This document shows positions 29,831-52,319 of a stretch of DNA of 64,000 nucleotides, one piece after another. The translations under genes and the position numbers were made by a program. Every line of letters starts with the position of its first letter. The first letter of the stretch is position 1. Origin of the DNA: Chitinophaga pinensis (GTDB lineage Bacteria; Bacteroidota; Bacteroidia; UBA7662; JAIXUI01); the NCBI GenBank assembly GCA_943373175.1, contig CALSBM010000001.1, forward strand, positions 51,298-115,297, in the 5' to 3' direction. The notes under the pieces were generated by a model. The model did not search any database. It was given only the letters and a program-made list of their open reading frames with translations, and was not told the origin of the DNA.

Positions 29831-30228
29831 ACATCTAATTTTAAATGACAGCGAAGGTTTTTACTATCATGTTCGTATTCTACCGCAACACAGTACTTCT
29901 TCAATAAAAAAACTCCTCTCCCTCCTTCACGTTGCAATAAATCTATCTGGGTAGGGTCAGACACTTCATTAAATTCAAACCCTTTTCCTTCGTCCTGAAT
30001 GTTCAATTCAACATCAGGATAATTGAGTGTCCAGTTTAGCCACACTTTCTTACCCTCTTCGTTTCGGTTTCCGTGTTTGATTGCATTAGCAATTGCTTCA
30101 CTTAACACCAATCTTAATGCAAATTTTGCCTTGTCTGATAAAGGATGTGTTTCTTCTACTGATTGAATAAACTGATCGAGAAGAGGCCAATCCTTTAGTC
30201 CATGTTCAAAAACGATTTGCCCCGTCAC
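29827..30228 (-). CDS. RsbW/SpoIIAB-like anti-sigma factor serine kinase (HATPase_c_2)
   Basis: LSEAIANAIKHG N-box and GRGVFLL G-box, 133 aa. Confidence 0.55.
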   Translation of the reverse strand: MTGQIVFEHGLKDWPLLDQFIQSVEETHPLSDKAKFALRLVLSEAIANAIKHGNRNEEGKKVWLNWTLNYPDVELNIQDEGKGFEFNEVSDPTQIDLLQREGGRGVFLLKKYCVAVEYEHDSKNLRCHLKLDV

Positions 30229-33200
30229 TTCGTCTCTTCATTAGGTTATTCATGTACCTGTCTACTTTTTGCCTGTAGAATGGTTGTAAATCTAGTGTTT
30301 GACTTTTAAGCCCTTCAAGTTCTCTACTCTTCAATTGCTTAAATACATCAAAGGCTTTTTGCCTGTTAGCTATATTTTGATCTGCTGTGTTGCTCTTTCT
30401 TGTTTCATCTTCTTCCCTCTTGCGTTCAGCTTTATCTGACTCCAACAAACGTGTGAGTATATCTTGCTGGCGATTTAGCGTTTCCTGACTTAAACTTTTA
30501 TTCAAAAGCTCCCTTTCGGTTTGCTCCATTTCTTGCAACGCTTTTTCCATGTAGTTCTGCTCAGGTTTCCCACCTTTTCCTTCCTTCTTAAGCTGATCAT
30601 TCATGCGTTGCAATTCTCTACGAATAGCTTGCTGACGAGCTACCATTTGAGCAAATTCTTTTCCTTGTCCGCTTTGGCGTTGACCTGGTTTTTGACCTTG
30701 CTGTCCCGGTTTTTGCCCGTCTTTCAATTTTTGCATGTCTTCATTTAACTGTTTCTGCAACTTAGAAAGTGCCCCTCCTCCGGGTTTCTTTTTTCCGGGT
30801 TTTGCACATGAACCCTGACCTTGTTGTTGCTGTTGCTGCTGCTGTTGCATTTGCTTAAGTACCTCAGATAACATTACAGCAAGGTTATTTACTGAAGTCA
30901 TCACATACTGTTGTTTTACCTTTGCAACTGGAGTATTTCGAGTGCCAAGTGCTTGTATGGCTCCTTCAATATGCTGATTCATATCACCAACCTCTTTGGT
31001 AATAAAACTTTTTAACTGCATAACTCGCTTAGATAATGCTTGAAGACTATCTTCAATCAAGCGGGCATCGTCCTTAAGTTTAAACTGATCCTGAGCAATT
31101 TTAACATACAACGGCCCGTACTGGGTATTGTCCTTGAGCTTATCTATCAGATTCTCCTGCGCAAAAGAAAGTTTAACCAGATTATCTAACAACATTCTCA
31201 GTGCACGCATATCTTCCTCCATCTCTTGTTGTTCCTGTTGCTGTTTTCTTTGCTTCATGTTTGAAGACATCTGTTGCATTTTCTTTGCGGCTTGCTTCTG
31301 ATTCTTCTTCCCACTTTTCTTATCTCCTTTACTCAGATTCTCCTTCCCTGATTTCATTTCTTGCTCTATCTCCGAAGATTCCTTCTCCATTTCTCCGGTG
31401 TCCATTGGAGATTCGAGCTTTTCGTTTTGCTCTTTCATCTCCTTCATCTCTTCTTTTAATTCACTAAACTCTTTATTGAGATCTTCCTGCTTTTTGAGTT
31501 GTTCTTCCTTCTTGCTGTTATCCTCTTCCGCAAGATCTTCTTGTTTCTTAGCTAATTCATCGAGCTTCTCCATTACTTTATCCATTTTCTGCTCAACGGC
31601 TAACTCCTTAAAGAACTCCAGCATACGATCTAATTCCTTCTGAAGATCTTTGTTGTCTAACTTCATATTTTCCAACTGTTTTTGTAATTCAGCCGGATCT
31701 GATTTACTTTCTTGAAGACGCTGAAGCTCTTCAATTAGCTTTCTTAAATCTTCATTCAAGGTTTTCTCTAACATTTCCTGAAGCTCCTTTTGCTTTTCTA
31801 CTAGTTGCTCTTCCTCAGGATCTGTTTTCTCATTTTGCTTTAAATTCTGCTCTGAAAGCTTTTTAACTTCCTTTAAAGTACTCTCAATTTGTTGCTGCTT
31901 TTTTAGCAATTGATCTACCGCTTTTTTATCCTCCCAGCTCAACTCCTGCTTATCTCGCAACTTCTTTCTCAACTGCTCAGCTTCTTGCTGAATCTTTTTT
32001 GTGTCCTTTACTGCTTCCTTCAAAGAAGCAGTAATTTGATCTGAACGACTTTCGGTTGCCTTCTCCATTTCCTTCACACTTTCCTGTCTGAAACGGAACA
32101 TCTCGCTTCTACTGGATTTTGCTCCATTCACTGCATCGTTATCATAAACTTCAAAAAAGTACTCTACTGTTTGGCCGGGAAGAATCGATAAACTGTTTAA
32201 ATCAAAATAGTGAACGATTCTTTGTTGTAATGATGCAGACTGTAAGGAAAGTTTGCTGGTTTGCCACTTGCCAGATGGTGTATTACCATGGCTTACAATA
32301 TGGTAACGGAATACAAGCTGACTAATGCCATAATCATCTGATATTTCTCCTTCGAAATACCGTACAGCATTGTCCATACTGTCTATCGATTCAAATACAC
32401 GGATACCGGGATATTCGTCTTTTACTACCGTAACACTATAGGCAGCAGAATCTTTCAATATTGATTCTCGGTTAAATGATGAAATGCTGTAGTTAGTTGA
32501 TTGTTTAGCAAGGACTTTAGCTTCAAATCTGTTGCTTTTCAATAACGTAGTAACTGGAATTGATTGATTTGCCCATTTAAGTTGCAAGCTGTCAACGTGT
32601 TCACCTTCAATCAACCAAATCAACTTAGTTCCTTCGGGGACATTGAAATCGCCTCTATCGCTGAAAACTTCATCCTGCTTTTTCAAGTAATCTGGATAAT
32701 CTAACTTGACTATCATGCTTTTGATGACTGGTCTGGGTACAACTTTGAGTAGGTATGACTTCGTTGTAAAACCACCAGACACCATCCGAAACTCTATGTT
32801 TTTCTGAACCTGATTAAAGACATACGAAAAAGCGTTTTTCGCATCCGGATTCATCCTGAATCTCTGGCTTCCTACTTCGAGAATAAGCTCTTGAGGTAAA
32901 ATTTTCCCTGAGGTCTTGACTTCCAGTTTAAAGTCTTCGAACTGTGTGCTTTTCAATGTTTTATTAACAATGGTAATATCAAAAGGTGCTTCAGGTTCAA
33001 ACTCCTCGTTGAATCGCACTAAGCGAGAAGCTGGTTTACTAATCCATTCAGGAGAAATAGCTGAAACAAAAAGAAGTAAGATTAATGGTATTGAGATCCA
33101 ACGGACATGCTTGTAATTTTCCTTAAGATTAATTGCATTAGTAAAAGGAATGGGTCTCAATTGACCAATTTTCTGATCAATGGAGGCAACAAGAAAAACA

Positions 33201-33580
33201 TCTGTTTCTACCTGATTTTCCAATTGCTGCTCCAATTGTAACGTGTTTAGCAGACGGTCCTGAACCTCAGGAAAGTGAAGGCCAATTAATCTGGCGGCTC
33301 CTTCATAAGAAAGCCGTGTACCTATCCTGTTAAGTTTCAACCAAGGAAGTAAAAGCCAGAGAATCAAAAAGTAAAGCCCTGCCGTTATGAAGCAGAAGAA
33401 AAGAATACTTTTCCATAATGGTGACATCCAGAGTAATTGCTCAGCAAAAACCATTAGAAGGAAAATGGAGATAATGCTACCTGTGAAAAATAGTCCTCCT
33501 CTAATTATTCTATTCTTGTAGTACTTTCGGATATAAGACTCCAGCTTATCCTTTAAGCTAATAAACTCCCTGCTCTGCAT
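30206..33580 (-). CDS. large membrane-anchored coiled-coil protein with K/E-rich low-complexity region and polyQ tract
   Basis: 1124 aa; two N-terminal TM helices, a beta-rich middle region, then about 500 aa of heptad-rich K/E/Q coiled coil ending with Q9 and a G/K/Q-rich segment. Confidence 0.6.
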   Translation of the reverse strand: MQSREFISLKDKLESYIRKYYKNRIIRGGLFFTGSIISIFLLMVFAEQLLWMSPLWKSILFFCFITAGLYFLILWLLLPWLKLNRIGTRLSYEGAARLIGLHFPEVQDRLLNTLQLEQQLENQVETDVFLVASIDQKIGQLRPIPFTNAINLKENYKHVRWISIPLILLLFVSAISPEWISKPASRLVRFNEEFEPEAPFDITIVNKTLKSTQFEDFKLEVKTSGKILPQELILEVGSQRFRMNPDAKNAFSYVFNQVQKNIEFRMVSGGFTTKSYLLKVVPRPVIKSMIVKLDYPDYLKKQDEVFSDRGDFNVPEGTKLIWLIEGEHVDSLQLKWANQSIPVTTLLKSNRFEAKVLAKQSTNYSISSFNRESILKDSAAYSVTVVKDEYPGIRVFESIDSMDNAVRYFEGEISDDYGISQLVFRYHIVSHGNTPSGKWQTSKLSLQSASLQQRIVHYFDLNSLSILPGQTVEYFFEVYDNDAVNGAKSSRSEMFRFRQESVKEMEKATESRSDQITASLKEAVKDTKKIQQEAEQLRKKLRDKQELSWEDKKAVDQLLKKQQQIESTLKEVKKLSEQNLKQNEKTDPEEEQLVEKQKELQEMLEKTLNEDLRKLIEELQRLQESKSDPAELQKQLENMKLDNKDLQKELDRMLEFFKELAVEQKMDKVMEKLDELAKKQEDLAEEDNSKKEEQLKKQEDLNKEFSELKEEMKEMKEQNEKLESPMDTGEMEKESSEIEQEMKSGKENLSKGDKKSGKKNQKQAAKKMQQMSSNMKQRKQQQEQQEMEEDMRALRMLLDNLVKLSFAQENLIDKLKDNTQYGPLYVKIAQDQFKLKDDARLIEDSLQALSKRVMQLKSFITKEVGDMNQHIEGAIQALGTRNTPVAKVKQQYVMTSVNNLAVMLSEVLKQMQQQQQQQQQGQGSCAKPGKKKPGGGALSKLQKQLNEDMQKLKDGQKPGQQGQKPGQRQSGQGKEFAQMVARQQAIRRELQRMNDQLKKEGKGGKPEQNYMEKALQEMEQTERELLNKSLSQETLNRQQDILTRLLESDKAERKREEDETRKSNTADQNIANRQKAFDVFKQLKSRELEGLKSQTLDLQPFYRQKVDRYMNNLMKRRSDGANRF
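30830..30856 (-). repeat. (CAA/CAG)9 trinucleotide microsatellite encoding Q9
   Basis: Plus strand reads TTGTTGTTGCTGTTGCTGCTGCTGTTG, in frame within the 30206..33580 gene. Confidence 0.8.
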
Positions 33581-36190: not shown

Positions 36191-37359
36191 AATTGTTTCA
36201 TTCGATTAATAGCCTCCAATAAGGTTTCTTCTTTCTTAGCAAAACAGAAACGAACCAATTTTGAAGCTGGATTTTGGTGGTAAAATGGTGAAAGAGGCAC
36301 TAAAGCAACACCAACTTCTTTACATAACCATTCTGTAAATGCGATATCATCTAAAGAACTGATTGAAGAATAATCGGCGAGAAAAAAGTATGTTCCTTGA
36401 GGTTGCAAAATTTTGAAAGGCGTATCCTTTAATCCCTCGATCAGAAAATCTCGCTTTTTCTCATAAAATGCTCCAAGAGTTCTATCACTATTGTCGATTG
36501 AAAGAAAATCTGCATAAGCCTTCTGAGCTGGTGTATTAACAGAAAATACAGTAAACTGATGAGCCTTTCGAAACTCTACCATTAATTCCGCAGGTGCACA
36601 AACATAACCTACCTTCCATCCGGTAGTATGGTATGTCTTTCCAAAAGAAGAGACTACTAGTGCTTTATTTCTTATCCGAGGATGTGAAGACAGACTTAAA
36701 TGTTGATATCCATCGAACAGAATATGTTCGTAAACCTCATCGCTTAGAATTAGAATACCATTCTCGCACGTGAGCCGATCCAATTGTTGAATATCACCTT
36801 CTGTAAAAACTACACCGGTTGGATTATGGGGAGAATTTACCACGATCATCCTGGTTCTCTTGTTGATACTGCGTTCAACCAACTCCCAATCGTAGAGAAA
36901 ATCAGGTGCTTTAAGAGGAATATGTACCGGAACCCCTCCTTGAAGTTTTATTGAAGGTGCATAACTGTCGTAAGAAGGATCAAACAATATCACTTCGTCG
37001 CCCTTTTGGATAAAGGCTGAAAATGCCGTGAATAACGCTTGCGTTGCCCCGGAAGTTATCGTTATCTCCGTAATTGGGTTGTATTGAACTTGATACAACT
37101 GTCCAATCTTTTGAGAAATTTGAGTTCTTAAAATGGGCAATCCATCTGATGGTGCATACTGGTTGAATCCTTCCGCCATAGCCCTGCTGAATGCTTCCAC
37201 TAATTGTTCTGGTGGATTGAAATCAGGAAAACCCTGCGCAAGATTTACAGCTTCGTATTCAGCAGCGAGTTTAGACATCTTAGAGAAGATGCTTATGCCA
37301 GCAGTCGGTAATTTGGAATTGATGGGGTAAGGATAATGAAGCATTGAATAACTACCCAA
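36187..37359 (-). CDS. class I/II aminotransferase (methionine aminotransferase YbdL-like)
   Basis: NLAQGFPDF N-terminal motif, PLP-lysine region SFGKTYHTTGWKVGY, 390 aa. Confidence 0.7.
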   Translation of the reverse strand: MGSYSMLHYPYPINSKLPTAGISIFSKMSKLAAEYEAVNLAQGFPDFNPPEQLVEAFSRAMAEGFNQYAPSDGLPILRTQISQKIGQLYQVQYNPITEITITSGATQALFTAFSAFIQKGDEVILFDPSYDSYAPSIKLQGGVPVHIPLKAPDFLYDWELVERSINKRTRMIVVNSPHNPTGVVFTEGDIQQLDRLTCENGILILSDEVYEHILFDGYQHLSLSSHPRIRNKALVVSSFGKTYHTTGWKVGYVCAPAELMVEFRKAHQFTVFSVNTPAQKAYADFLSIDNSDRTLGAFYEKKRDFLIEGLKDTPFKILQPQGTYFFLADYSSISSLDDIAFTEWLCKEVGVALVPLSPFYHQNPASKLVRFCFAKKEETLLEAINRMKQL

Positions 37360-37367
37360 TTTATTGA

Positions 37368-38372
37368 TTAAAGACCTAAACTGCCAGATAATTCTAGCAT
37401 TCTGCGAATAGGTTTCTCTGCAGCAGCTCTCAGTGATTCTTCCATCTCTATTGTTGGCTTACCGTATTTTAATGCGAGGTAAATCTTCTCTAAGGTATTG
37501 CGCTTCATGTGTGGGCAATCGTTACAAGCGCAACCATTGTTAGGAGGAGCTGGAATAAACTTTTTATGAGGTGCCGCTTTTTCCATCTGATGAAGAATAC
37601 CGGTTTCGGTAGCAACAATAAAAGACGTCGCCTTTGATTTCAAACTGTAGTTCAACAAAGCCGTGGTACTTCCGATAAACGATGCCAGTTCCAATATATC
37701 TGCTTCGCATTCAGGATGCGCAATAAATTCTGCTTCTGGGTTTAACTCCATCAGCTTTTTGATTTTGTCCAAAGAGAATATTTCATGTACCTGACATGCG
37801 CCATTCCACAAAAGCATATTTCTTCCTGTCTTCTTATTAACGTAAGCCCCTAAGTTCTTATCAGGAGCAAAAATGATAGGCTGATTAACTGAAAGACTTT
37901 CTACAATTTGAACTGCATTGGAAGAAGTGCATATAATGTCTGATAAGGCTTTAACATCGGCAGTGCAGTTGATATAAGAGATTACCAAGTGATCCGGATT
38001 AGCTTCTTTAAACTTTTTGAAAGCATCAGCAGGTGCCGAATCAGCTAATGAACACCCAGCTTTCAAATCCGGAAGGAGTACGATTTTTCTGGGATTAAGA
38101 ATTTTAGCAGTTTCCGCCATAAAATGAACTCCTGCAAAAAGAATAACCTCTGCTTCAGTCGAAGCGGCTTGCTGCGCTAAGCCCAAGCTATCGCCTATAT
38201 AATCTGCAATATCCTGTATATCACCAGTCTGATAGTAATGTGCGAGGATTATCGCATTCTTCTCTTTCTTCAACAAAGTAATTTCATCCAGCAGGTTAAG
38301 GCGAGGAGAAACCGGCACGTCGAGAAAACCATTCTCTTCAAGCTTTTCCACAGCAAACACCAGGGTACTCAT
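37368..38372 (-). CDS. nadA: quinolinate synthase A
   Basis: 334 aa with the NadA triple-repeat architecture and conserved Cys ligands ([15 protein letters not shown] region). Confidence 0.85.
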
Positions 38373-38413
38373 GATTATTAATCTTTTTTATAAAACATCC
38401 CAATCATCATCAT

Positions 38414-38727
38414 GGTGTGGAAATGGGGTAAAAGTTTTGAAAATTTCTTTTGGACAGAAGTAATACACTTAAAGTTTGAGCTTATCCACAGAAGTTTATG
38501 ACCTATATTCAAGATTTACAAGCAGATGCAACTTTATACACATGGTTGTGGAAAAAGTACGTTAGGCAGCATTTCGAGAAACAGGACACGCACAAAAAGT
38601 GGATAAAATCATTCGTCGGTGGATAAAGGTAGTACTTGATGGATAGATGTTTTTTTTGCTGAACAACCATGCACAAAGCGCAGAAGTTGAGTTCATATTA
38701 TCCACATCTATTTGAGCGATATCCACA
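38414..38727. promoter_or_regulatory. cluster of DnaA-box-like 9-mers (candidate oriC or DnaA-regulated region)
   Basis: Perfect TTATCCACA at 38482..38490 and 38698..38706; 8/9 matches at 38547..38555 (TGTGGAAAA), 38598..38606 (AGTGGATAA), 38618..38626 (GGTGGATAA), 38719..38727 (ATATCCACA); 7/9 at 38414..38422; AT-rich flank at 38373..38400. Confidence 0.5.
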
Positions 38728-38728
38728 T

Positions 38729-38938
38729 TTAAGGAACAGGGTCGTAGCCATGTCCACCCCACGGATGACAGCGCATAATTCGTTTTAATGCAAGCCAAAA
38801 GCCTTTGAATGAGCCATGTTTTTGGACCGCTTGAAAGGCATAAGCCGAGCAAGTTGGTGTAAATCTGCAACTATTGGGAAGCCATGGAGACAGGACTAAT
38901 TGATAGGCTTTAATCAATCCTAATAGTAGCCAGCGCAT
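38729..38938 (-). CDS. yidD: membrane protein insertion efficiency factor YidD
   Basis: [11 protein letters not shown]...HG...G..L...[15 protein letters not shown] family signature; start taken at the internal MRWLLLGL; the 38562..38870 ORF that overlaps it is spurious. Confidence 0.75.
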
Positions 38939-39335
38939 GATAATGAATTTTACGAAGGATTTTTTCCCAAGTAATGGGAATGGACGGGTGTTGAGGTAAA
39001 TCCTGATGGATGTAATGTAACGCAATCAAAAGCAGCTCCCCCGAGCTTAAAGCATCTTGTTCAAGTTGAGAAGGAAAGTTTAAACGAACGGATTCTCTCA
39101 ACACTCGTTTTATCCGGTTACGTTCAACGGCGTGTTTGAAGCGGCGTTTCGATACGTTAACTAAAATCTGAACGCCAGGATTTTGCGCCTGTTGGACTCG
39201 GATTAATTTAGCACGTAGGGGAAACAAAAAAAAATCAGTGCCGCTGTAATGCAGAACCTCGATTAGTTTTCTGCTTTTCAGCCGCACTGATTGTGGAAAG
39301 AGGGTCGGCCTGGTGTTATCAGACCCGCCGTTCAT
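38910..39335 (-). CDS. rnpA: ribonuclease P protein component
   Basis: [10 protein letters not shown] and [17 protein letters not shown] RnpA motifs; start ATG 1 nt after the rpmH stop. Confidence 0.75.
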
Positions 39336-39336
39336 A

Positions 39337-39495
39337 TCAGAACTTATGGCGCTTCTCGTCGGAGACGGTCAGCTTTTTACGGCCTTTAGCTCTCCGGCGG
39401 GCAAGTACATTTCGACCATTGGCCGTGGCCATCCGTTCGCGGAAGCCATGCTTGTTCCTTCTCTTTCTGAGTGAGGGTTGGAATGTGCGTTTCAT
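39337..39495 (-). CDS. rpmH: 50S ribosomal protein L34
   Basis: Manual translation gives [52 protein letters not shown] (52 aa); missing from the ORF track because it is under 60 aa. Confidence 0.85.
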
Positions 39496-39584
39496 TGCCG
39501 TTTATGATAGGGAGTGCAAAAGTACAATAACTGCATTCAAAACCAAATCTTCAAAGAAGATAAAATGAAGTTATCGACAAGTTT

Positions 39585-40997
39585 TCAAGATTTTCGCTTT
39601 TGAAGCAGCACTACATTCTCGACATGAGCCGTATGAGGAAACATATCCACTGGTCTCCAAGCCATTACTTCGAAGTGTGAATCTAATAATTGTAGGTCAC
39701 GAGCTTGGGTTGCAACGTTGCAGCTTACGTACACGATTTTCTCAGGAGATAGCTTTATCAAAGTATCTACAACGTCCGGATGCATTCCTGCTCTCGGAGG
39801 ATCGGTTACAATTACTTCCGGCTTTCCGTATCTCGCAACAATTTCCGGTTTAAGCAAATCTTTCATATCGCCCGCCAGAAAATCAACGTTGTGAATTTGG
39901 TTTAACTCTGCATTCTTTCGAGCATCTTCAACAGCTTCTGGCACCGATTCTATTCCAAGAACCTTTTTTGCATGCCTAGCCAGAAAAAGGGAAATAGTGC
40001 CGATACCGGAATACAAATCATAGACGGTTTCATCTCCTTTTAAACCGGCATAATTAAGCGCTTGCTGGTACAATCGTTCGGTTTGACGACTGTTAGTTTG
40101 AAAGAAGCTTTTCGGGCCAATCAAAAAACGAAGGTCACCAATAGTCTCGGTTAGCGTACTACTGCCTGAGTAAAGCAAGACGTCTTGATCGTAAATGCTG
40201 TCGTTTTTCTTCGTGTTGATGATGTACTGAAGTGAGGTGATGGCTGAAAAACGAGTTTTCAGCATTTCCAGGACGTTTTCTCTATGTTCAGCTTCTTCAC
40301 CACCAAACATTACGGTTACCATCCATTCACCTTTGAGGTTATTGCGAAGACTCAACTGGCGAAGGCAACCTTCATGGGCAACAACGTCGTAGAAGCTGAT
40401 TTGGTTTATAATTGCGAAATCATATAGTGCCAGTCGAATATCATTCGCCAATGGGTGCATTAGATGACAGGCCTCAATGTGTAGGATTTTGTCCCATCGC
40501 TTGGGAATGTGAAAACCTGCTCCCGGAAGATCTTTGTTTTCTTTGGCGAGTTTCATTTCTTCCGGTGTAATCCAACGCTTGTTGCAAAAAGCAAATTCAA
40601 GTTTATTTCGGTACTGATATTCATCCAAGCTACCGAGGATTTTTTCCGGTTCGGGTAACCGAACTTTTCCCAACCGTTGCAATGTTTCAGCAACTTGTTC
40701 CTGTTTGTATCGAAGTTGATATTCGTAACCTAAATGCTGCCACTTACAACCGCCACAATAGCCAAAGTGATTACAAACAGGCAATGTTCTTTCCGGGGAT
40801 GGCAACTTTAATTTTTCAATAGTTGCCATCATGTAAGAACTCTTGTCGTTGATAATCCGCAAATCTGCTAAATCACCTGGAGCTGCAAACTCAACGAAAG
40901 CTACTTTCTCTCCTATTCGGGCTACGCTTTTTCCTTCGGAAGCGAAACCAGAAACGGTGACGTCTTCCAGAATCTGATTTCTTGGAATGCGGGGCAT
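39585..40997 (-). CDS. rlmD: 23S rRNA (uracil-5)-methyltransferase RlmD/RumA
   Basis: N-terminal TRAM domain, 4Fe-4S cluster ligands CNHFGYCGGCKWQH, SAM-dependent MTase fold with DPPRAG motif, 470 aa. Confidence 0.8.
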   Translation of the reverse strand: MPRIPRNQILEDVTVSGFASEGKSVARIGEKVAFVEFAAPGDLADLRIINDKSSYMMATIEKLKLPSPERTLPVCNHFGYCGGCKWQHLGYEYQLRYKQEQVAETLQRLGKVRLPEPEKILGSLDEYQYRNKLEFAFCNKRWITPEEMKLAKENKDLPGAGFHIPKRWDKILHIEACHLMHPLANDIRLALYDFAIINQISFYDVVAHEGCLRQLSLRNNLKGEWMVTVMFGGEEAEHRENVLEMLKTRFSAITSLQYIINTKKNDSIYDQDVLLYSGSSTLTETIGDLRFLIGPKSFFQTNSRQTERLYQQALNYAGLKGDETVYDLYSGIGTISLFLARHAKKVLGIESVPEAVEDARKNAELNQIHNVDFLAGDMKDLLKPEIVARYGKPEVIVTDPPRAGMHPDVVDTLIKLSPEKIVYVSCNVATQARDLQLLDSHFEVMAWRPVDMFPHTAHVENVVLLQKRKS

Positions 40998-40998
40998 A

Positions 40999-41751
40999 CT
41001 ATACAGCCAAACCTGAGTTCATTAAACGGCCTGAATCAATAAGCTTTGCTAGCGCTTTGCTTTCAAGTACTTTATGAAAGGAGCGTACATGATTTAAGTT
41101 GTGTGTGTCTGTTCCAATCAGTGAAATCATACCTTTATCAATCAGTTTTTCGGCAATACGCTTAGCCATGGGAGAATAGGCGCCGATTAAAGAGCCTAAG
41201 TTGAGCTGAAAAAGAACTTCAAAATCAATGAGTTCTTCGTATTTGCGAAAATCGTCGTAGTAAAAAGTATAGCGTTCCGGATGAGCGAGTATAGGTTTGT
41301 AACCTTTGATTTTCATATCGAAAACCAGGCTTTTTATATCAACAGGCTCATTAATGTATGAAAGTTCGAAGAGAACCATTTTACTTCCCATTGTCAAAAG
41401 GTTTTCTTGTTGACAAAGCTTCTGAAGGTTCTCGTCTAAATAGTATTCAGCAGCGAAATTGAGATGAGTAGAAAGACCTTCTTCCTTAAGCTTTTTTCGA
41501 ACCTGATTTACCGCATTGCCAATGGTTTCTGGATTATTCCGATAGTAATCCTGCATAACATGAGGAGTGGTGATGAATTGTTCATAGCCTAACTCCTGTA
41601 ACCCTCTGATTAAGGCTACTGATTCTTCAACAGATTTCGAACCATCATCAATGCCGGGCGCCAGGTGGCTATGCATGTCCACTTTTATCTCAGACAAATC
41701 CTTCACAGCGTGGCTATTGCTGGAAAATAAATTTTTAAATAATTGAATCAC
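40999..41751 (-). CDS. PHP-domain protein-tyrosine phosphatase (CpsB/YwqE-like)
   Basis: DMHSHLAPGIDDG metal-binding N-terminus, PILAHPERY and GTDTHN motifs, 250 aa. Confidence 0.75.
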   Translation of the reverse strand: MIQLFKNLFSSNSHAVKDLSEIKVDMHSHLAPGIDDGSKSVEESVALIRGLQELGYEQFITTPHVMQDYYRNNPETIGNAVNQVRKKLKEEGLSTHLNFAAEYYLDENLQKLCQQENLLTMGSKMVLFELSYINEPVDIKSLVFDMKIKGYKPILAHPERYTFYYDDFRKYEELIDFEVLFQLNLGSLIGAYSPMAKRIAEKLIDKGMISLIGTDTHNLNHVRSFHKVLESKALAKLIDSGRLMNSGLAV

Positions 41752-41785
41752 TTAAGACAAAAGTAAACGCTAAACAGTAATAGGG

Positions 41786-41816
41786 AAAAATAAAAACACC
41801 CGCCGAAGCGGGTGAC
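41786..41816 (-). terminator. Rho-independent terminator
   Basis: Minus-strand hairpin CACCCGCTTCGGCGGGTG followed by TTTTTATTTTT, just downstream of the 41835 stop. Confidence 0.75.
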
Positions 41817-41834
41817 GCAAAAACAAGGGGATGA

Positions 41835-42263
41835 TTAACAATGATCTTTAAAGGCATCTGCCAGATTTTGTGCAATCATTTCAGCGGGTCTGCCTTCGAT
41901 ATTATGACGTTCCAGCATGTGTACCAGTTTACCATCTTTGAAAAGAGCAATAGAAGGCGAAGAGGGAGGGAATGGAAGCATGTATTCGCGGACACGGTTT
42001 ACTGCATCGCTTTCCATGCCTGCGAAGACAGTAGCAAGGCGGTGAGGTTTTTTGTCGGATAAGTCTACTGCCTTTTTTACACCAGGACGAGCGTTGGCAG
42101 CAGCACAACCACAAACAGAATTTACAACAACTAAAGTAGTTCCTGACATTTCGTTCATAAACTGATCCACTGATTCGGGAGTAAGAAGTTCGGTAAATCC
42201 TGCTTCCGTTAGATCTTTTCTCATTGGGCTCACCATGAATTCGGGGTAGTTGGCCATAATCAA
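41835..42263 (-). CDS. bacilliredoxin-family thiol-disulfide oxidoreductase (YphP/YqiW, DUF1094; CGC active site)
   Basis: TTLVVVNSVCGCAA motif with CGC redox centre and a C-terminal ...FKDHC; 142 aa; very close to my memory of the Bacillus BrxA sequence, which I could not check here. Confidence 0.7.
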   Translation of the reverse strand: MIMANYPEFMVSPMRKDLTEAGFTELLTPESVDQFMNEMSGTTLVVVNSVCGCAAANARPGVKKAVDLSDKKPHRLATVFAGMESDAVNRVREYMLPFPPSSPSIALFKDGKLVHMLERHNIEGRPAEMIAQNLADAFKDHC

Positions 42264-42304
42264 TTATTTAGATAGGTTAAAAACAGCGTGTTATCCGTTT
42301 TGGT

Positions 42305-43228
42305 TCACTGAATATCGATATCAAATTGAACAAGGCTGACAAACTCACGAATGCGAGCATCGAGTTCTTGTTCAGTGAGAGAATCAAGGCGCTCAGTACC
42401 AAATCGTTCTACACAAAATGAGGCGAGAGCTGAGCCATAAATAATCGCATTCTTCATGTTTTCAAAGGAGATGTCGCCTGTTTTAGCGAGATAGCCAATA
42501 AAGCCACCTGCAAAGGTGTCGCCTGCGCCTGTTGGGTCGAATACTTCTTCAAGCGGTAAGGCTGGTGCGAAAAACATGTGATTCTTGTGGAAAAGCAGTG
42601 CGCCGTGTTCTCCTTTTTTAATGATAAGAAAGGGTGGTCCCATTGCCGTAATCTTGCGTGCTGCCTTTAACAAAGAATACTCTCCGGATAATTGACGAGC
42701 TTCCTCATCGTTGATGGTCAACACATCCACCTGCTTAAGAGTTTGCTTCAGTTCATCAAGGGCAACATCCATCCAGAAATTCATGGTATCCATAACAATC
42801 AGTTTTGGCCGGCGGTGAAGCCTTTGAATTACCAATTGCTGAACAGCAGGTGTAAGGTTTCCAAGCATTAGAAATTCGCAATCCTGATAAGTATCTGGAA
42901 TAATAGGGTCGAAGTTAGCGAGCACGTTGAGTTCAGTAACCAGCGTGTCCCTGGAGTTCATATCGAGGTGATACTTACCTGACCAGAAAAAGGATTTTTC
43001 GTCTTGTTTTACCTGGACTCCTTCAGTATGGATTCCTTTTGCATTGAGTTGAGTAAGTTTTTCTGCTGGGAAATCGTATCCAACTACAGAAACGGCTTTT
43101 ACAGGTAGAGTGAGAAAGCTCGCAGCCTGAGCGATGTAGGTAGCTGCACCACCGATTGTTTTATCTGTTTTTCCGAAAGGGGTTTCTATGGCATCGAACG
43201 CCATGGTGCCCACTACAATAAGGCTCAT
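42305..43228 (-). CDS. PfkB-family carbohydrate/nucleoside kinase
   Basis: DPTGAGDTFAGGFIGYL C-terminal ATP-binding signature of the ribokinase family, 307 aa. Confidence 0.75.
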   Translation of the reverse strand: MSLIVVGTMAFDAIETPFGKTDKTIGGAATYIAQAASFLTLPVKAVSVVGYDFPAEKLTQLNAKGIHTEGVQVKQDEKSFFWSGKYHLDMNSRDTLVTELNVLANFDPIIPDTYQDCEFLMLGNLTPAVQQLVIQRLHRRPKLIVMDTMNFWMDVALDELKQTLKQVDVLTINDEEARQLSGEYSLLKAARKITAMGPPFLIIKKGEHGALLFHKNHMFFAPALPLEEVFDPTGAGDTFAGGFIGYLAKTGDISFENMKNAIIYGSALASFCVERFGTERLDSLTEQELDARIREFVSLVQFDIDIQ

Positions 43229-43479
43229 GTTTGAAAATTTGCTGCAAAGATGCAGTCTTGGATTGAAAGTTTATGAGCAAGGGTTAGGCGATGCTTAGGA
43301 AGCGGTTTGCGTGAGGTGCCTGAAAGGCGAGCGAAGCGAGGTGCGAAGCACGGAACCCTGAAAGGCACCGACCCGAAAGCCGGGCAAAAAAATTACACTA
43401 TTCGAAGAAGCGTTAAAAGCCCGGCTGAAGGGGCACGCCCAAAGAAATTAATAACCTGATTTACAACTAGATATAAATA

Positions 43480-43508
43480 AAAAAAGGTCAGAATACTCTG
43501 ACCTTTTT
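43480..43508 (-). terminator. Rho-independent terminator of tRNA-Asn
   Basis: Minus-strand hairpin AGGTCAGAGTATTCTGACCT followed by a T7 run, immediately 3' of the tRNA. Confidence 0.75.
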
Positions 43509-43509
43509 G

Positions 43510-43583
43510 CTCCCCGAGCTGGGCTCGAACCAGCGACCCTCTGATTAACAGTCAGATGCTCTAACCGACTGAGCTATCGAGGA
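43510..43583 (-). tRNA. tRNA-Asn (anticodon GTT)
   Basis: Hand-folded cloverleaf: acceptor TCCTCGA/TCGGGGA, D-arm GCTC/GAGC, anticodon arm TCTGA-CTGTTAA-TCAGA, T-arm GCTGG-TTCGAGC-CCAGC, discriminator G; 74 nt; CCA not encoded. Confidence 0.85.
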
Positions 43584-43653
43584 GTGTCCCTTGCGAAACG
43601 GACTGCAATGATAGAAGATGAATTCTAAAAATGCAACCAGTCTAAAAAAAATT

Positions 43654-43875
43654 TTAGTTGCCTAATGAACTGAGAATTTCCCAAGGAAAGTTTACTGCAA
43701 AAGCCTGAAATTTTTCCGCAATGATACTTTGGGGGCTTATCAGAAGTATGACAAAGCAAACCGTCCAGATGAGGAGAAACACAACAAGAAAGCCTATTTT
43801 CCACGCCTTACGGATGGCCAATTTGTCTTCTTCAAAGGTTTTAACCTTGTCGAGTTCTTTTAACTGGATTCTCAC
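43654..43875 (-). CDS. small hypothetical membrane protein
   Basis: 73 aa with one strongly hydrophobic helix (IGFLVVFLLIWTVCFVILLI). Confidence 0.3.
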   Translation of the reverse strand: MRIQLKELDKVKTFEEDKLAIRKAWKIGFLVVFLLIWTVCFVILLISPQSIIAEKFQAFAVNFPWEILSSLGN

Positions 43876-43945
43876 CTTACAAATATGAGAACTAAGTACT
43901 TACCCTCCGACAATCAGGCATCAATTCGACAATAAAATCGACAGG

Positions 43946-44680
43946 TTAAAGATTCCAAAAATTCCAAGATGCTTCTGCCTGAAGATGAAGCATTTCTAAT
44001 CCATTGAAACATTGGGCCCCTGCCAGTTGAGCTGCCTTTAGTAAGGCGGTTTGTTCCGGATTGTAAATAAGGTCGTACACAAAATGGTTACTAGTAATAC
44101 CTTCAGTTGGAATAGGAGGCATTTCGTGAATATGAGGATGCATACCCACGGGGGTTGTATTTACAATTAATGGAAAACGGGCTATCAATTCTGGACTAAG
44201 AAAGTCATAAGTATAATCGCCTATTTCAGGATTCCTTGATACCACCATCGAAGTGATTCCGAGTTGTTGCAGGGCAAATCTTACTGCTTTGGAAGAACCG
44301 CCTGTGCCTAAAACTAACGCTATAGAAGGCTTATCATTACCTAGCCATGCCTGTAACGATGTTTGAAAGGCTTCTGCATCGGTGTTGTGTCCTGTTAGGA
44401 TACCATCGGAATTTACGCGGACACAATTGACAGCACCAATTTCTCTGGCGGTTTCGGTAATGTGGTTAAGAATGGAAAGAACGGTTACTTTGAATGGAAT
44501 AGTAACATTGAAGCCCCTGAGGCCGGGATGATTTTTAGTCCAAAGCTGAAATTCCTCAAGAGTAGCACATTCTGCCAGCCAATACTGAGCCTTAATGTTT
44601 TCTTGTGAAAACTTAGTTTGAAAGTAGGCTTGAGAAAAGGAGTGTCCAAGGGGGTAACCCCAAAGGGCGTATTCAATCAT
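43946..44680 (-). CDS. aroE: shikimate dehydrogenase
   Basis: WGYPLGHSFS substrate-binding N-terminus and a GTGGSSKAV NADP-binding motif, 244 aa. Confidence 0.8.
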   Translation of the reverse strand: MIEYALWGYPLGHSFSQAYFQTKFSQENIKAQYWLAECATLEEFQLWTKNHPGLRGFNVTIPFKVTVLSILNHITETAREIGAVNCVRVNSDGILTGHNTDAEAFQTSLQAWLGNDKPSIALVLGTGGSSKAVRFALQQLGITSMVVSRNPEIGDYTYDFLSPELIARFPLIVNTTPVGMHPHIHEMPPIPTEGITSNHFVYDLIYNPEQTALLKAAQLAGAQCFNGLEMLHLQAEASWNFWNL

Positions 44681-45324
44681 TTTCTGCGGAGCCTGGCTTT
44701 CACAAATTCAAAAACGATGGGCAAAAGGGAAAAACCAATGATTGAGAAGACAACAAGTTCGAAGTTGTCTTTTACAATGGGCAATTGCCCGAAGAAGTAA
44801 CCGGCAAGGGTAAGCGATAGCACCCATAGTAGTCCTCCTCCAATGTTGAAAGAGAAGAATCGGGCGTAATCCATTTTGCCAATACCGGCAACAAAAGGGG
44901 CAAGTGTGCGAACAATAGGTACAAAGCGAGCAATGACAATGGTTTTAGCCCCGTAATCCGAATAGAACGATTCTGTTTTTGCCAGGTGTTCGGGTTTGAT
45001 GATGGGACTCCCTCTAAACTTCAATCTTAGAATTTGTTTTCCAAAAAATTTCCCAATGAAGTAATTCGTTGCGTCACCGAGAATAGCAGCAATAGAAAGT
45101 AAGATTAATAGTGTGAGAAGATTAAAATCGCCACGGGCTGCAAAAGATCCAACAGCAAAAAGCAGGGAATCGCCTGGAAGAAATGGCATGACCACCACCC
45201 CGGTTTCAACAAAAATGATGAGAAACAGGATGCCGTAAGTCCAGACACCATACTGTTGAATAAAATCAGACAGGTGTTGGTCGAGATGAAGAAGAAAGTC
45301 TAATAAACTATGGATTAGCTCCAT
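44677..45324 (-). CDS. DedA-family (SNARE-associated/TVP38) membrane protein
   Basis: FLPGDSLLFAVG and GDATNYFIGKFFG DedA motifs, 215 aa; paralog at 60979..61614. Confidence 0.75.
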   Translation of the reverse strand: MELIHSLLDFLLHLDQHLSDFIQQYGVWTYGILFLIIFVETGVVVMPFLPGDSLLFAVGSFAARGDFNLLTLLILLSIAAILGDATNYFIGKFFGKQILRLKFRGSPIIKPEHLAKTESFYSDYGAKTIVIARFVPIVRTLAPFVAGIGKMDYARFFSFNIGGGLLWVLSLTLAGYFFGQLPIVKDNFELVVFSIIGFSLLPIVFEFVKARLRRK

Positions 45325-46091
45325 TAAGCCTGATTAAGAAAGTGGTGGAAAGTATCTGAACGAAGACCAAGTCGAAGGGTTTCAAGAGGAATGACTTCCT
45401 GGGGAGCGATATTGCCAAGGTTAACATTAGAACCTATAAGCTTAACAAACCAGGTTTGTTGCGCTTTTTGTGGGGCTTCCCAGATAATTTGCTCATGCTC
45501 AATTTGGGTTAGAATTTCGTCAACAAGTCCGGAACGTACTTCGCCAGTTCCACGGAAGATGCCAACATTGCCGGCTTCCCGAGCTTCTGCGATTACTTTC
45601 CAAGCACCAGCCTGAAGTTCATTTTTCATCATAGCAATCCACTTATAGGGGGCAATGATTTTTTCAGCGTCTTTGGAACCCACTTCCGAGAGCACAGTTC
45701 TGCCGTCATTGACTAAAGTTTCAATAAACCTGCATTTTTCATCATGGGGTATTTCAAGTGAACCATCGGATACTTCAACAAACGTCATATCGAACTGATC
45801 CAATGCTTTTCGGTAATCATCAAATTGTTGACGAACAACGAATGCTTCGAATAAGGTTCCTCCAAAATACACGGGGATGCCGGATTTACGGTAAACCCCA
45901 AGCTTTTCCGGAAGGTTTGGCGTCACATAGGAGGTTGCCCAGCCGAGTTTAACAATGTCGATGTAGGGTTCTGCAACTGAAAGTAGATTTTCAGTTTCAC
46001 GGATGCTCAATCCCTTGTCCATGACCATAGTTAGGCCTGAGGATCTGGGTTTATCGCTTCGTTCTGGGATGTTTTTAAGATAATAGTGCAT
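45324..46091 (-). CDS. (2R)-phospho-3-sulfolactate synthase ComA-family protein
   Basis: YIDIVKLGWATS, FGGTLFE, SEVGSKD, EAREAGNVG and LETLRLGLRSDTF blocks characteristic of the ComA/YitD family, 255 aa. Confidence 0.7.
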   Translation of the reverse strand: MHYYLKNIPERSDKPRSSGLTMVMDKGLSIRETENLLSVAEPYIDIVKLGWATSYVTPNLPEKLGVYRKSGIPVYFGGTLFEAFVVRQQFDDYRKALDQFDMTFVEVSDGSLEIPHDEKCRFIETLVNDGRTVLSEVGSKDAEKIIAPYKWIAMMKNELQAGAWKVIAEAREAGNVGIFRGTGEVRSGLVDEILTQIEHEQIIWEAPQKAQQTWFVKLIGSNVNLGNIAPQEVIPLETLRLGLRSDTFHHFLNQA

Positions 46092-46101
46092 ACAGGCTCA
46101 G

Positions 46102-47517
46102 TCAGGAACGGTTTAGTTCAATCAGACGAATAAACGCCGGGTGATTCAATGCCGTTTCGGAGTAATCAAAAAAGAGGGTATGGTTGTCGTAGTTGAGGGC
46201 CAGGGCTTGCTCTAATGCATCGCGGGCGGGCACCTGGAAACCCCAGTCGAGCATTATTCCCGCATAGCGGTAAAGAAATTCATCATCATTAGAATGAAAC
46301 TCGTAGCCTTTATTTAAGACTAACAAAGCTTCTTCTTGATCTAAAAATTCGTTCGCGAGCAAAATCGCATAATCTACTCGGGCTTCCATAAAGCGAGGAT
46401 CGATGGCTAAAGCGGCTTCATAGCAGGTACGCGCTTGATCATGCGAATCGAGGTTTTCATAGACCTCACTTAGGCTGTACCAGAATTCCTCAACTTCCGG
46501 ATTTAGTTCTAGTGCACGCTTTATTAGTGACTCTGCCTGAGAAAACTGCTCTTTGATAAGGCTACAAATACCGAGGCCAAACCAGCCATCTGCAAGGGTG
46601 GTGTCGGTTTCTACAGAACGGCGGTACCAATAAGCTGCTTCATCAATTTGATTGAGCTTTTCATAGCAAACGCCTATTCCACAAATGACGGATGCATTTT
46701 GGCGGTCCTCTTGATGAGCTGCAAGCAACATTTCCAATGCGTCCTGATATTTGCCCATGTTGAGGTAAACATTGGCTTTGGTATAGAGGGCGAACTGGTG
46801 TCGGGCATTGATTACGAGGCAATAATCTAACGATTCTAAAGCATCTTCGAAGCGGCCATTACGGTTCAGAACATTGGAAAGCTGATACCAAGCTTGATCA
46901 TTAAAGGGATCTTCATCGATTAACTGACGGAAAAACGCCTCTCCAGCTTCCCAGTCGGGTAACTGGGAGTAGCACCAGGCTATTTCGTCGAGAATGGCTT
47001 TATCTTGAGGATTCAGTTTGAGGAATAATTGGTAATAGTAGATAGCTTGAGAGAATTTGCCCCACTCTAAGTAAGCATTTCCAAGGCAGGCATAGACAAT
47101 GTCAACCTGGTCTTCTGCAAGTTCTTCTGCCTTTTTATAAAACAGAACAGCTTCCTTGTAATCGCCCTGTATTTCAAAAGCAGAACCTTTGGTTAAGGGG
47201 ATTTCATGATTTTGGGGTTCTAGAATTTCGGCATGTTTTAACCATTCAAAAACGCCAAGGGCATCGTTCTTCGTTAGGCAAAGCTGTGCTTTTCTAATGT
47301 AAAAGATGGCGGAATAAGGGCTTTGCCTCAGTCCCATGTCCACTACTTTTTCGGCCAAATCAGCCTTGTTGTTTGCAATGAAATAATCGAAAAGTTCTTC
47401 TAGCGTTTCTGAGTCAAAGAAACCACGCTGCTCTCCTTTGAGCATGGCTTCAAAGCGTTCTGCCGAAGGTTTCAGCTCATGGTCATCGAATTCCGGGGGG
47501 AGGTTGTTAAAATCCAA
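46102..47517 (-). CDS. TPR-repeat protein
   Basis: 471 aa of tandem 34-residue repeats with a W-LG-Y / A-F-A-P consensus. Confidence 0.7.
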   Translation of the reverse strand: MDFNNLPPEFDDHELKPSAERFEAMLKGEQRGFFDSETLEELFDYFIANNKADLAEKVVDMGLRQSPYSAIFYIRKAQLCLTKNDALGVFEWLKHAEILEPQNHEIPLTKGSAFEIQGDYKEAVLFYKKAEELAEDQVDIVYACLGNAYLEWGKFSQAIYYYQLFLKLNPQDKAILDEIAWCYSQLPDWEAGEAFFRQLIDEDPFNDQAWYQLSNVLNRNGRFEDALESLDYCLVINARHQFALYTKANVYLNMGKYQDALEMLLAAHQEDRQNASVICGIGVCYEKLNQIDEAAYWYRRSVETDTTLADGWFGLGICSLIKEQFSQAESLIKRALELNPEVEEFWYSLSEVYENLDSHDQARTCYEAALAIDPRFMEARVDYAILLANEFLDQEEALLVLNKGYEFHSNDDEFLYRYAGIMLDWGFQVPARDALEQALALNYDNHTLFFDYSETALNHPAFIRLIELNRS

Positions 47518-47589
47518 GGCCTGAACAGTTAGAACGTTTCGGTCAAAGGTAGATAAATTAAGCAGGAATTAAGGGAAATAGAGAAGGCA

Positions 47590-47622
47590 AAAAAAAACCG
47601 CGCTCTAATTGGAGCGCGGTCT
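47590..47622 (-). terminator. Rho-independent terminator
   Basis: Minus-strand hairpin ACCGCGCTCCAATTAGAGCGCGGT followed by a T9 run. Confidence 0.8.
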
Positions 47623-47639
47623 TTAAATTAGAACCAAGA

Positions 47640-48440
47640 TTACTTCATGTCGGCATTAATGTACTCAGTAGGAGTACTACCAGTCATTTTGTAAAGTACT
47701 GCAACAATTTTAATGTCAGCAGCTTTCTGGTTAGACGGAATAGTATATTCATAGTTACCGGTTACCGTTTGGTTTTCAGTAAAGGAGGTCGAGGCTGAAA
47801 TTGGAGTTCCCCATGAAGAATCTTCCATTTCAGCACGTAGTACATGCTTGTGAGCATAAATGCCTGTGATACCATTTTGAGTATTCATAACATTATTCTC
47901 AGTAACATAAAGCGCAAGGTGGTACGTACCTGTTGAGGCTTTAAAGAATTTAACTGCACTTGATACTGTGAGTTTGTCACCGGAAACGGTCTTTCTGATT
48001 GCAACACCAGCAGTAACGTCAGCAGGAAGTTTTGCTAAAAGTGTATTTACAGCAGTATTCGTCTGCGAAGTGCCACTTTGTTTAGAAATACCAACGGCAA
48101 AGGATGGGTATCCACCAGAGATGAGTAAATCGTTGATAGGCCCTCCAACGGGCACATCCAAATCATCATTCGCAGTTGATTTGATTCCAAAAACTCTGGT
48201 AGAGTCAATGTTTATTGCGTTGTAGAAGCCTGGAATTCCCCAACTTCCACAAGGGCCACACCATGTTGCAGAAATATTCACAACAACAGCTCTTTGTTCA
48301 TTTGTTGGAACCAAACTTCCGCCTCCAGGAGTCGTTGGTAATGATCTTTCATCTTTAGTGCAGGACGTCACTCCAAAAGCGATAGTACCTGCAAGCAGGA
48401 AGGAAAAAATTTTTCTCATGAGTCTGATTTTGATAATCAA
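47640..48440 (-). CDS. thioredoxin-motif (WCGPC) lipoprotein
   Basis: Probable start at MRKIFSFLLAG...VTSC lipobox (about 48419); ATWCGPCGSWG thioredoxin active-site motif; 266 aa. Confidence 0.5.
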   Translation of the reverse strand: MIIKIRLMRKIFSFLLAGTIAFGVTSCTKDERSLPTTPGGGSLVPTNEQRAVVVNISATWCGPCGSWGIPGFYNAINIDSTRVFGIKSTANDDLDVPVGGPINDLLISGGYPSFAVGISKQSGTSQTNTAVNTLLAKLPADVTAGVAIRKTVSGDKLTVSSAVKFFKASTGTYHLALYVTENNVMNTQNGITGIYAHKHVLRAEMEDSSWGTPISASTSFTENQTVTGNYEYTIPSNQKAADIKIVAVLYKMTGSTPTEYINADMK

Positions 48441-48512
48441 ATGTAAACAAACACTTTGTATAAAGTAAAGTGCTTAATTGTTAAAAAAGAAGTTAAAAAT
48501 CAACTTAGTTGA

Positions 48513-49268
48513 TTAATCTAAAGGTTGTTTTTGTAAAGTAAGCTCAAATGCTTTCATAACTTCCGATAGATGATCGGGGTTTTCTTCGAATGCGTGGCCG
48601 ATAACGGCAAGATCAGCACCAGCAAGAAAAGCCTCTTGGAGCTGTTTGGAAGTCCTAATCCCCCCCCCCACTATGAGCGGATTGGTTACAAGCCTTCTAA
48701 CCGCGGAAATGGTGGCAGGTTCTACAGGGTTTTGTGCACCGCTACCGGCATCCAGATAGGTGATTTTATGTCCAATTTGTAAACCTGCCAATGCAGTTAC
48801 TGCTGCAATGTCAGGCTTATTAGCAGGAATCGGGGTAGTGTTGCTGATATAAGAAACAGTTGTAGGCTTACCGCCGTCAACCAAAATATAGCTGGTGGAC
48901 AGAATTTCGAGTCCTGATCGCAGTAAGGCGGGGGCTGCTGCCACATGTGCGCTGATGAGAAACTCAGGATTTCTGCCAGAAATAAGATTAAGTAACAAAA
49001 TCGCGTCAGCAGCAGGGGTAATTTGATTGATGCTTCCCGGAAACAGAATAACGGGAATAGTAGAATGCTGCCTGATTATTTTAATGGCTTCCTCCGTTTG
49101 GTCAGAATGAAGTAAACTTCCTCCTACAAAAAAGAAATCAACGCCGTAGAAAACAGCCTTTTTGACCAAATCAGAAAGATGGTCTATCTTATCGGGGTCA
49201 ACGAGAATGGCAATTTGCTTCAATCCCCTAACTCTAGCCAACTCGAGATTTGCGTAAATTCCCGGCAT
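48513..49268 (-). CDS. PcrB/GGGP-synthase-family prenyl-glycerol-phosphate synthase homolog
   Basis: 251 aa TIM-barrel-type protein with the conserved phosphate-binding IVGGGIRT motif and an N-terminal ILVDPDK motif. Confidence 0.6.
   Translation of the reverse strand: MPGIYANLELARVRGLKQIAILVDPDKIDHLSDLVKKAVFYGVDFFFVGGSLLHSDQTEEAIKIIRQHSTIPVILFPGSINQITPAADAILLLNLISGRNPEFLISAHVAAAPALLRSGLEILSTSYILVDGGKPTTVSYISNTTPIPANKPDIAAVTALAGLQIGHKITYLDAGSGAQNPVEPATISAVRRLVTNPLIVGGGIRTSKQLQEAFLAGADLAVIGHAFEENPDHLSEVMKAFELTLQKQPLD
48660..48669. repeat. C10/G10 homopolymer inside a coding sequence
   Basis: Ten consecutive C on the plus strand, encoding the GGG of the IVGGGIRT motif in the 48513..49268 gene. 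Confidence 0.9.
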
Positions 49269-52276: not shown

Positions 52277-52319
52277 GGATAACGCCATAAAGTGAGCAGA
52301 ACACGTTTACCTTTGCGAC

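Follow-up and report, generated by a model that had tools for sequence, protein, structure and literature searches.

The intergenic region between yidD and nadA is very probably a DnaA-dependent chromosomal origin of replication, oriC, with a BUS-type unwinding module; this is a prediction, and its basis is computational throughout. It draws on DnaA-box enrichment, conservation of the individual elements, low duplex stability, a compositional switch, and a match to origins predicted in databases. An initial annotation had already put the box cluster forward as a candidate oriC, a reading now backed by the box density, a local skew minimum at position 38411, the unwinding module, and the DoriC origins of relatives. 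The window, i.e., the whole stretch of DNA that was analysed, is 64 kb long, and the predicted oriC fragment within it is 356 bp.

By analogy with B. subtilis and E. coli, DnaA binding, unwinding and initiation would take place at 38373-38728. DnaA-ATP would occupy eight to ten double-stranded boxes spread over ~310 bp (38416-38727). From the tandem boxes (38416-38432) a DnaA oligomer would extend onto the central-A trinucleotides of the + strand (38402-38413), and this would melt the 27-bp AT-rich element at 38373-38399. The replicative helicase would then load at the melted element and two forks would depart. The leftward fork would be co-directional through nadA and ~37 kb of minus-strand genes; the rightward fork would run head-on with yidD-rnpA-rpmH and ~11 kb of genes.

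Such an origin would be an ordinary, essential element of known design, built like the predicted origins of related bacteria. It would allow the replication map of a draft or uncultured Bacteroidota genome to be anchored without a nearby dnaA. The 356-bp fragment is also a candidate for oriC shuttle plasmids in hard-to-manipulate bacteria, as in Cytophaga hutchinsonii.

The DnaA-box array and the unwinding module

The genes on either side of the region (Table 1) have been identified with Pfam and, as the initial annotation had it, all four (nadA, yidD, rnpA and rpmH) are on the minus strand. The absence of dnaA from the window, also noted there, holds as well. Neither dnaA nor dnaN was found when Pfam was run on all large ORFs of the 64 kb, all of which are otherwise assigned, and the DnaA signature motif is absent from every frame of the window. 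One standard Ori-Finder indicator gene, rpmH, lies ~600 bp from the box cluster.

Table 1. Elements of the predicted origin and the adjoining genes (invariant columns refer to the alignment of five genomes).
Feature	Position	Strand	Remarks
Predicted oriC (yidD-nadA intergenic region; DnaA-box array and unwinding module)	38373..38728	.	
nadA (quinolinate synthase)	37368..38372	-	Pfam PF02445, E=4e-121; transcribed away from the DUE
nadA start codon	38370-38372		
AT-rich DUE GATTATTAATCTTTTTTATAAAACAT and CCC spacer	38373..38401	.	abuts the nadA start codon; 23/29 columns invariant
Four DnaA-trio-like trinucleotides, 5'-AAT CAT CAT CAT-3'	38402-38413	+	read 3'->5' as TAC TAC TAC TAA, each with a central A
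Spacer GG	38414-38415	+	2 nt
Tandem boxes TTTACCCCA (6/9) and ATTTCCACA (7/9)	38416..38432	-	one-base overlap; 9-mer + 8-mer layout
Weak box-like site TAATACACT (6/9)	38461..38469	+	partly conserved, 5/9 columns invariant
DnaA box 7 TTATCCACA (9/9)	38482..38490	+	9/9 columns invariant
DnaA box 6 TTATACACA (8/9)	38534..38542	+	TTATTCACA in relatives; 8/9 columns invariant
DnaA box 5 TTTTCCACA (8/9)	38547..38555	-	inverted pair with box 6, 4-bp gap; 8/9 columns invariant
DnaA box 4 TTATCCACT (8/9)	38598..38606	-	20 bp from box 3, same orientation; 7/9 columns invariant
DnaA box 3 TTATCCACC (8/9)	38618..38626	-	7/9 columns invariant
Conserved 9-mer CCATGCACA (6/9 to the box consensus)	38667..38675	+	TGTGCATGG on the nadA strand
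DnaA box 2 TTATCCACA (9/9)	38698..38706	+	21 bp from box 1, same orientation; 8/9 columns invariant
DnaA box 1 ATATCCACA (8/9)	38719..38727	+	two bases past the yidD stop; 9/9 columns invariant
yidD	38729-38950	-	Pfam YidD
rnpA	38910-39335	-	Pfam RnpA
rpmH (L34)	39337-39495	-	Pfam
yidD-rnpA-rpmH operon	38729..39495	-	transcribed toward the origin, head-on to the rightward fork

The 355 bp contain seven boxes that depart from the consensus at no more than one position, two of them 9/9 and five 8/9, in both orientations; the two perfect boxes and five near-matches described initially are thus recovered. This is ~60 times the background of the window. Sliding 355-bp windows elsewhere in the 64 kb hold 0.116 such boxes on average and 3 at most, so a cluster of seven is not put down to chance. 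The initial annotation had proposed comparing box density with background; across the window, the density here exceeds it (7 boxes, where the mean is 0.12 and the maximum elsewhere 3). The window as a whole has 29 boxes with at most one mismatch; shuffled sequences have 17.1 ± 3.9. A further box with one mismatch lies inside nadA at 38344(+), and one with two mismatches is located at 38416(-).

A mini-cluster of three 8/9 DnaA boxes within 104 bp (52229-, 52274- and 52324+; 52229-52332) lies 13.8 kb from the predicted oriC. It spans the 3' end of a gene for a T9SS-type surface protein and the first part of psd (phosphatidylserine decarboxylase). By a rough estimate, three boxes this close together would arise by chance with a probability of ~1-2%.

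Close relatives of the window are available as four metagenomic or MAG contigs (including NCBI GCA_027485865.1) whose NadA is 87-90% identical. In all four, the orthologous intergenic region immediately precedes nadA. The rnpA-yidD-nadA synteny is shared in the three where the upstream flank is present; the remaining contig, L087, ends within the intergenic region. When the five genomes are aligned, 112 of the 133 columns in the elements are invariant, compared with 70 of 223 in the spacer (odds ratio 11.7, p=3e-23). Judging from this alignment, the boxes, tandem boxes, trios and DUE are under purifying selection. The tandem-box stretch (38416-38433) has 16/18 invariant columns, and the spacer with the trios (38402-38415) has 12/14. 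Outside the listed elements, the sole invariant run of at least six columns is CCATGCACA (38667-38675), which could represent a weak DnaA box or be bound by an accessory protein. An A-rich run (38643-38657) follows it; both are invariant or nearly so in the five genomes. Two other readings of the intergenic region have been rejected: a noncoding RNA, with no Rfam match at E≤1 across 37300-39700, and a small ORF, as conservation takes the form of 9-bp islands between variable spacers.

The BUS, known from B. subtilis and predicted for 85% of the origins of 2070 species, is made up of tandem boxes, a short spacer, at least three central-A trinucleotides on the complementary strand, and AT-rich DNA (PMC8287927). 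The published rule asks for a box with no more than 2 mismatches and, 0-16 nt away, three or more NAN trinucleotides; the strand is the one that gives the box as 3'-AATAGGTGT-5' (PMC8287927). Upstream of nadA, the corresponding series, read 3'->5', is TAAAGGTGT (2 mismatches), the spacer GG, and TAC TAC TAC TAA. None of these trios (TAC, TAC, TAC, TAA) matches the most frequent form, 3'-GAT-5', with which only the central A agrees; GAT is the most frequent trio and is not demanded by the published rule (PMC8287927). Of the tandem pair, TTTACCCCA has 3 mismatches, where up to 4 are allowed for the second box of a BUS. The 30 nt beyond the trios are 80% A+T, as AT-rich as a BUS calls for.

The generic BUS pattern is permissive and fairly frequent by chance. 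A strict scan, narrower than the published rule, required a box with up to 2 mismatches, no more than 7 nt of spacer, four trios or more, an A+T content of at least 80% in the next 30 nt, and a tandem box with up to 4 mismatches. Counting both strands of the 64 kb, exactly one site passes it, 38424(-). In the direction of nadA this module reads TTTACCCC-ATTTCCACA, CC, ATG ATG ATG ATT, GGG, ATGTTTTATAAAAAAGATTAATAATC, and then the nadA ATG. The whole region, in the same direction, is ordered as the yidD stop, boxes 1-2, CCATGCACA, boxes 3-4, 5-6 and 7, the weak box, the module, and the nadA ATG.

Within the intergenic region, duplex stability is lowest where the module would open. Its least stable 27-mer begins at 38373 and lies directly beyond the trios; its dG is -25.8 compared with a window mean of -34.3 (sd 2.7). 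This is 3 sd under the mean stability and among the top 20 of 63,974 27-mers (top 0.03%). It coincides with the AT-rich stretch on the nadA-proximal side that had been pointed out in the initial annotation.

A compositional switch between genes of one orientation

The cumulative G-C minimum of the window falls at 38411, inside the yidD-nadA intergenic region. The view spans 64 kb, so the minimum is a local one. GC skew is below zero over the first ~37 kb and above zero between ~37 and 56 kb. With G exceeding C on leading strands, a skew minimum marks an origin, not a terminus. Genes on both sides of the region are on the same strand, which removes coding-strand bias and makes the compositional test unusually clean. 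In coding-strand terms, the GC3 skew of minus-strand genes changes sign exactly at the intergenic region, from a mean of +0.065 over the 29 genes to its left to one of -0.157 over the 16 genes to its right (Mann-Whitney p=2e-6). Because gene orientation is constant, this flip is a replication-strand signal. The initial annotation had leaned toward a DnaA-regulated element, citing the lack of a gene-orientation switch; the GC3 flip and the minimum at 38411 contradict that view. The lack of such a switch is not an argument against an origin.

The flip is also seen in other genomes. It occurs at the orthologous site of a close relative, L082 (p=0.0014), and in L090, an independent lineage with 75% NadA identity and co-oriented flanking genes (p=0.0011). 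In Arachidicoccus soli (L089) there is no more than a trend (p=0.077). GC skew over 13-kb relative loci was tried and set aside as uninformative, as the pattern appears in few-box loci too (13/30 vs 13/19). In those loci nadA often diverges from the gene upstream of it, and coding bias alone then gives a left-negative, right-positive profile.

Several features of the flanks can be noted here. The ~11 kb of minus-strand genes adjoining the predicted origin on the right (38729-49268) are head-on to the rightward fork and include yidD, rnpA, rpmH, a RumA-like methyltransferase, a CpsB-like phosphatase and tRNA-Asn. A convergent layout to the right of the origin is also found in L089 and L090. The GC3 skew of the 38729-49268 genes is strongly negative and fully equilibrated, so the head-on arrangement would be old. 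The tRNA-Asn gene (GTT; 43509-43583, minus) stands alone in a 718-nt gap between genes for a pfkB-family kinase and shikimate dehydrogenase, and the gap is kept in L081 and L082. On the left, a gene for a 1124-aa protein with a weak DUF4175 hit (30206-33580) is unusually skewed in composition, with a GC skew of -0.24 and an AT skew of -0.34 on the + strand, with a coding-strand GC3 skew of +0.31. It is found beside HATPase_c_2 and ybeY genes in all relatives.

nadA as the neighbour of the origin

The named relatives of the window's NadA belong to the Chitinophagaceae and Sphingobacteriaceae (71-75% identity). Genome contigs were scanned with NadA and the best 80 loci compared (L001-L080). Chitinophagaceae and several Sphingobacteriaceae have 3-8 boxes in the 500-800 bp upstream of nadA. 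In ~40 related loci (L001-L052; -60 to -800 from nadA) an orthologous box cluster adjoins the gene. Cyanobacterial and Saprospiraceae/Lewinellaceae nadA loci, which serve as negative controls, never have more than one upstream box, and nearly all have none. The neighbour on the far side varies: a divergent ppiD-like gene, nadB, a CTP_transf_like gene, yidD and others have been seen, the ppiD-like gene and nadB in a subset. The link to rpmH-rnpA-yidD made in the initial annotation is real as an adjacency and limited to the lineage, since none of the best 80 loci has yidD, rnpA or rpmH within ~6 kb of nadA. The conserved neighbour of the origin is nadA, because the cluster adjoins it in ~40 genomes and adjoins rpmH-rnpA-yidD only in the window and its close relatives. 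In the Chitinophagaceae, the Sphingobacteriaceae and the window lineage the DUE always faces nadA, a few to ~100 nt from the start codon.

The Chitinophagaceae carry a module of their own directly upstream of nadA, composed of TTATCCACnAATTCACA, CCC, CTAATAGTAGTAG and the AT-rich TTTTATAAATAA. The strict BUS scan misses most of these because their second box has 3 mismatches, and a profile search was used for the relatives. An nhmmer profile built on 15 seeds (tandem boxes, GC cluster, CTAATAGTAGTAG, AT-rich) detects 32 loci at E≤4e-6, with one match each, which in every case is on the strand of nadA and just ahead of that gene; nothing else significant was found in ~0.9 Mb. The window's module has no match to this profile at E≤10, so it is position, orientation and architecture, and not sequence homology, that make it correspond to the Chitinophagaceae modules.

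These modules can be tied to origins that are already in the databases. In DoriC, the origins of C. pinensis DSM 2588 (ORI93020100, around 899.7 kb) and of N. koreensis GR20-10 (ORI95030423, around 7.836 Mb) were chosen via whole-genome disparity curves, and their BUS are tabulated in PMC8287927. The published BUS of both have 2/32 mismatches to the Chitinophagaceae modules; the nadA-adjacent cluster is therefore the oriC locus already predicted in the Chitinophagaceae. The Pedobacter heparinus BUS entry is a loose match (25/30) to the nadB-nadA spacer of locus L049.

A second family of 7-mers, ATTAACA/GTTAACA/ACTAACA, is enriched along with DnaA-box cores in the origin regions of relatives when 7-mers are counted in an unbiased way. 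It occurs at 16-40x background, in 26/29 Chitinophagaceae loci and in 6-7 of the 8 nadB-nadA spacer loci (L019, L024, L027, L030, L032, L039, L049 and L052). Many Pedobacter origins have few E. coli-type boxes and many 7-mers of this family, which suggests that they are a lineage-specific, TTATTAACA-like variant of the box. None was seen by eye in the window's predicted origin.

No base separates the DUE from the start codon of nadA, and the promoter of this gene must therefore be located within oriC. The canonical Bacteroidetes -7 motif TAnnTTTG does not occur upstream of nadA (38373-38640). Partial TAnnTTT matches are found at 38631 and 38559 only, overlapping DnaA boxes 3 and 5, and a sigma-70 promoter scan performs at chance level. 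In E. coli, gidA transcription helps to open the origin. A functional, and not just historical, linkage of origin and nadA could be imagined, in which nadA transcription helps opening, or DnaA occupancy gates NAD biosynthesis, or both; this is a speculative and rather unlikely proposal. If it were true, replication initiation would be coupled to NAD supply.

The linkage of the origin with nadA across Chitinophagaceae, Sphingobacteriaceae and the window lineage would be modestly new. A literature search for a link between oriC and nadA or quinolinate synthase, or for oriC in Chitinophaga, Pedobacter or Sphingobacterium, turned up nothing specific; one Pedobacter genome note used Ori-Finder. In these groups nadA would be a better positional indicator of oriC than dnaA. 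It is absent from the Ori-Finder 2022 list of indicator genes, and its addition could therefore aid origin calling in draft genomes and MAGs.

Alternative readings and comparison with known origins

The same boxes could belong to a locus that is controlled by DnaA, with the true oriC elsewhere, e.g., by dnaA. They would then regulate the nadA promoter or form a titration cluster of the datA/DARS kind. The datA and DARS loci of E. coli are likewise conserved multi-box clusters, the window has no dnaA or dnaN, the boxes sit where the nadA promoter must be, and the partial -7-like TAnnTTT motifs overlap boxes 3 and 5. However, such a locus is expected to show no replication-strand switch, and one is present; nor should there be, by comparison with datA/DARS, a module of box, trios and DUE, and this is present as well. 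Moreover, the orthologous module of Chitinophaga and Niastella is the DoriC oriC by whole-genome asymmetry. Regulation or titration in place of an origin is consequently regarded as improbable. A dual role of the locus, as an origin that also controls nadA, is a separate matter and may apply.

It is less probable still that the region makes up half of a bipartite origin, or that it is a relic or a secondary one, with unwinding at, or dependent on, a second cluster outside the window. Bipartite origins are known in other bacteria. For example, the B. subtilis origin has box clusters on either side of dnaA. The oriC of H. pylori, in the account given by PMC8235120, consists of two parts. The view is confined to 64 kb, and the three-box mini-cluster at 52229-52332 is 13.8 kb away, but that cluster is mostly coding and has no AT-rich element. 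The yidD-nadA locus itself is self-sufficient in parts (box array, tandem boxes, trios and DUE), all apparently under purifying selection, and the GC3 skew is equilibrated on both sides, so that forks would long have diverged from this locus. That box-like 9-mers simply piled up by chance in an AT-rich spacer can almost be dismissed. One-mismatch 9-mers are indeed common (29 in the window), but their density here is 60-fold over the window mean and more than 2x the maximum elsewhere, and the boxes have been kept while the spacers diverge (p=3e-23).

As a predicted origin, the yidD-nadA region is closest in design to the DoriC origins of Chitinophaga and Niastella. Chitinophaga and Niastella relatives, whose modules are 2/32 mismatches from the published BUS, have the same box array, tandem boxes, short GC spacer, central-A trios, AT-rich element and nadA start, in the same position and polarity; the boxes are of the E. 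coli type and the origin is away from dnaA. The tandem layout (38416-38432) also resembles the Salinibacter, Chitinophaga and Niastella entries in the table of Pelliciari 2021 (PMC8287927). The differences are in the details. The window has trios ATGATGATGATT instead of CTAATAGTAGTAG; the Chitinophagaceae trios are GAT/TAT/CAT. In the window it is the first tandem box that is degenerate and the second that is strong, the reverse of most Chitinophagaceae. On the far side the neighbour is yidD-rnpA-rpmH, convergent on the origin, and not the divergent ppiD-like gene of the Chitinophagaceae.

In the incC/BUS of B. subtilis (DnaA-box 6/7, trios and AT-rich 27-mer) the elements follow one another in the same order and at the same spacing, and in both cases transcription of a gene leads away from the DUE (dnaN there, nadA here). 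In contrast, the trio is TAC here and GAT there, and the spacer has 2 nt compared with ~4 GC-rich nt in B. subtilis. The window's predicted origin also has CCC between the trios and the AT-rich element, is monopartite within the window, and lacks a dnaA/dnaN flank. The oriC of E. coli, between gidA and mioC, is likewise an intergenic region of a few hundred bp that is not beside dnaA, with the DUE at its edge by a gene transcribed away from it (gidA) and with multiple R-type TTATCCACA boxes in both orientations. Its 13-mer repeats were not identified in the window's predicted origin, whose boxes all lie to one side of the DUE.

Cytophaga hutchinsonii belongs to the same phylum (Bacteroidota) and a different order, and its oriC is likened to the present one by shared prediction criteria. 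That origin, as far as the account in PMC3531139 goes (citing Xu et al. 2012), was predicted and then confirmed with replicating oriC plasmids. The C. hutchinsonii case shows that origin predictions of this kind hold in Bacteroidota.
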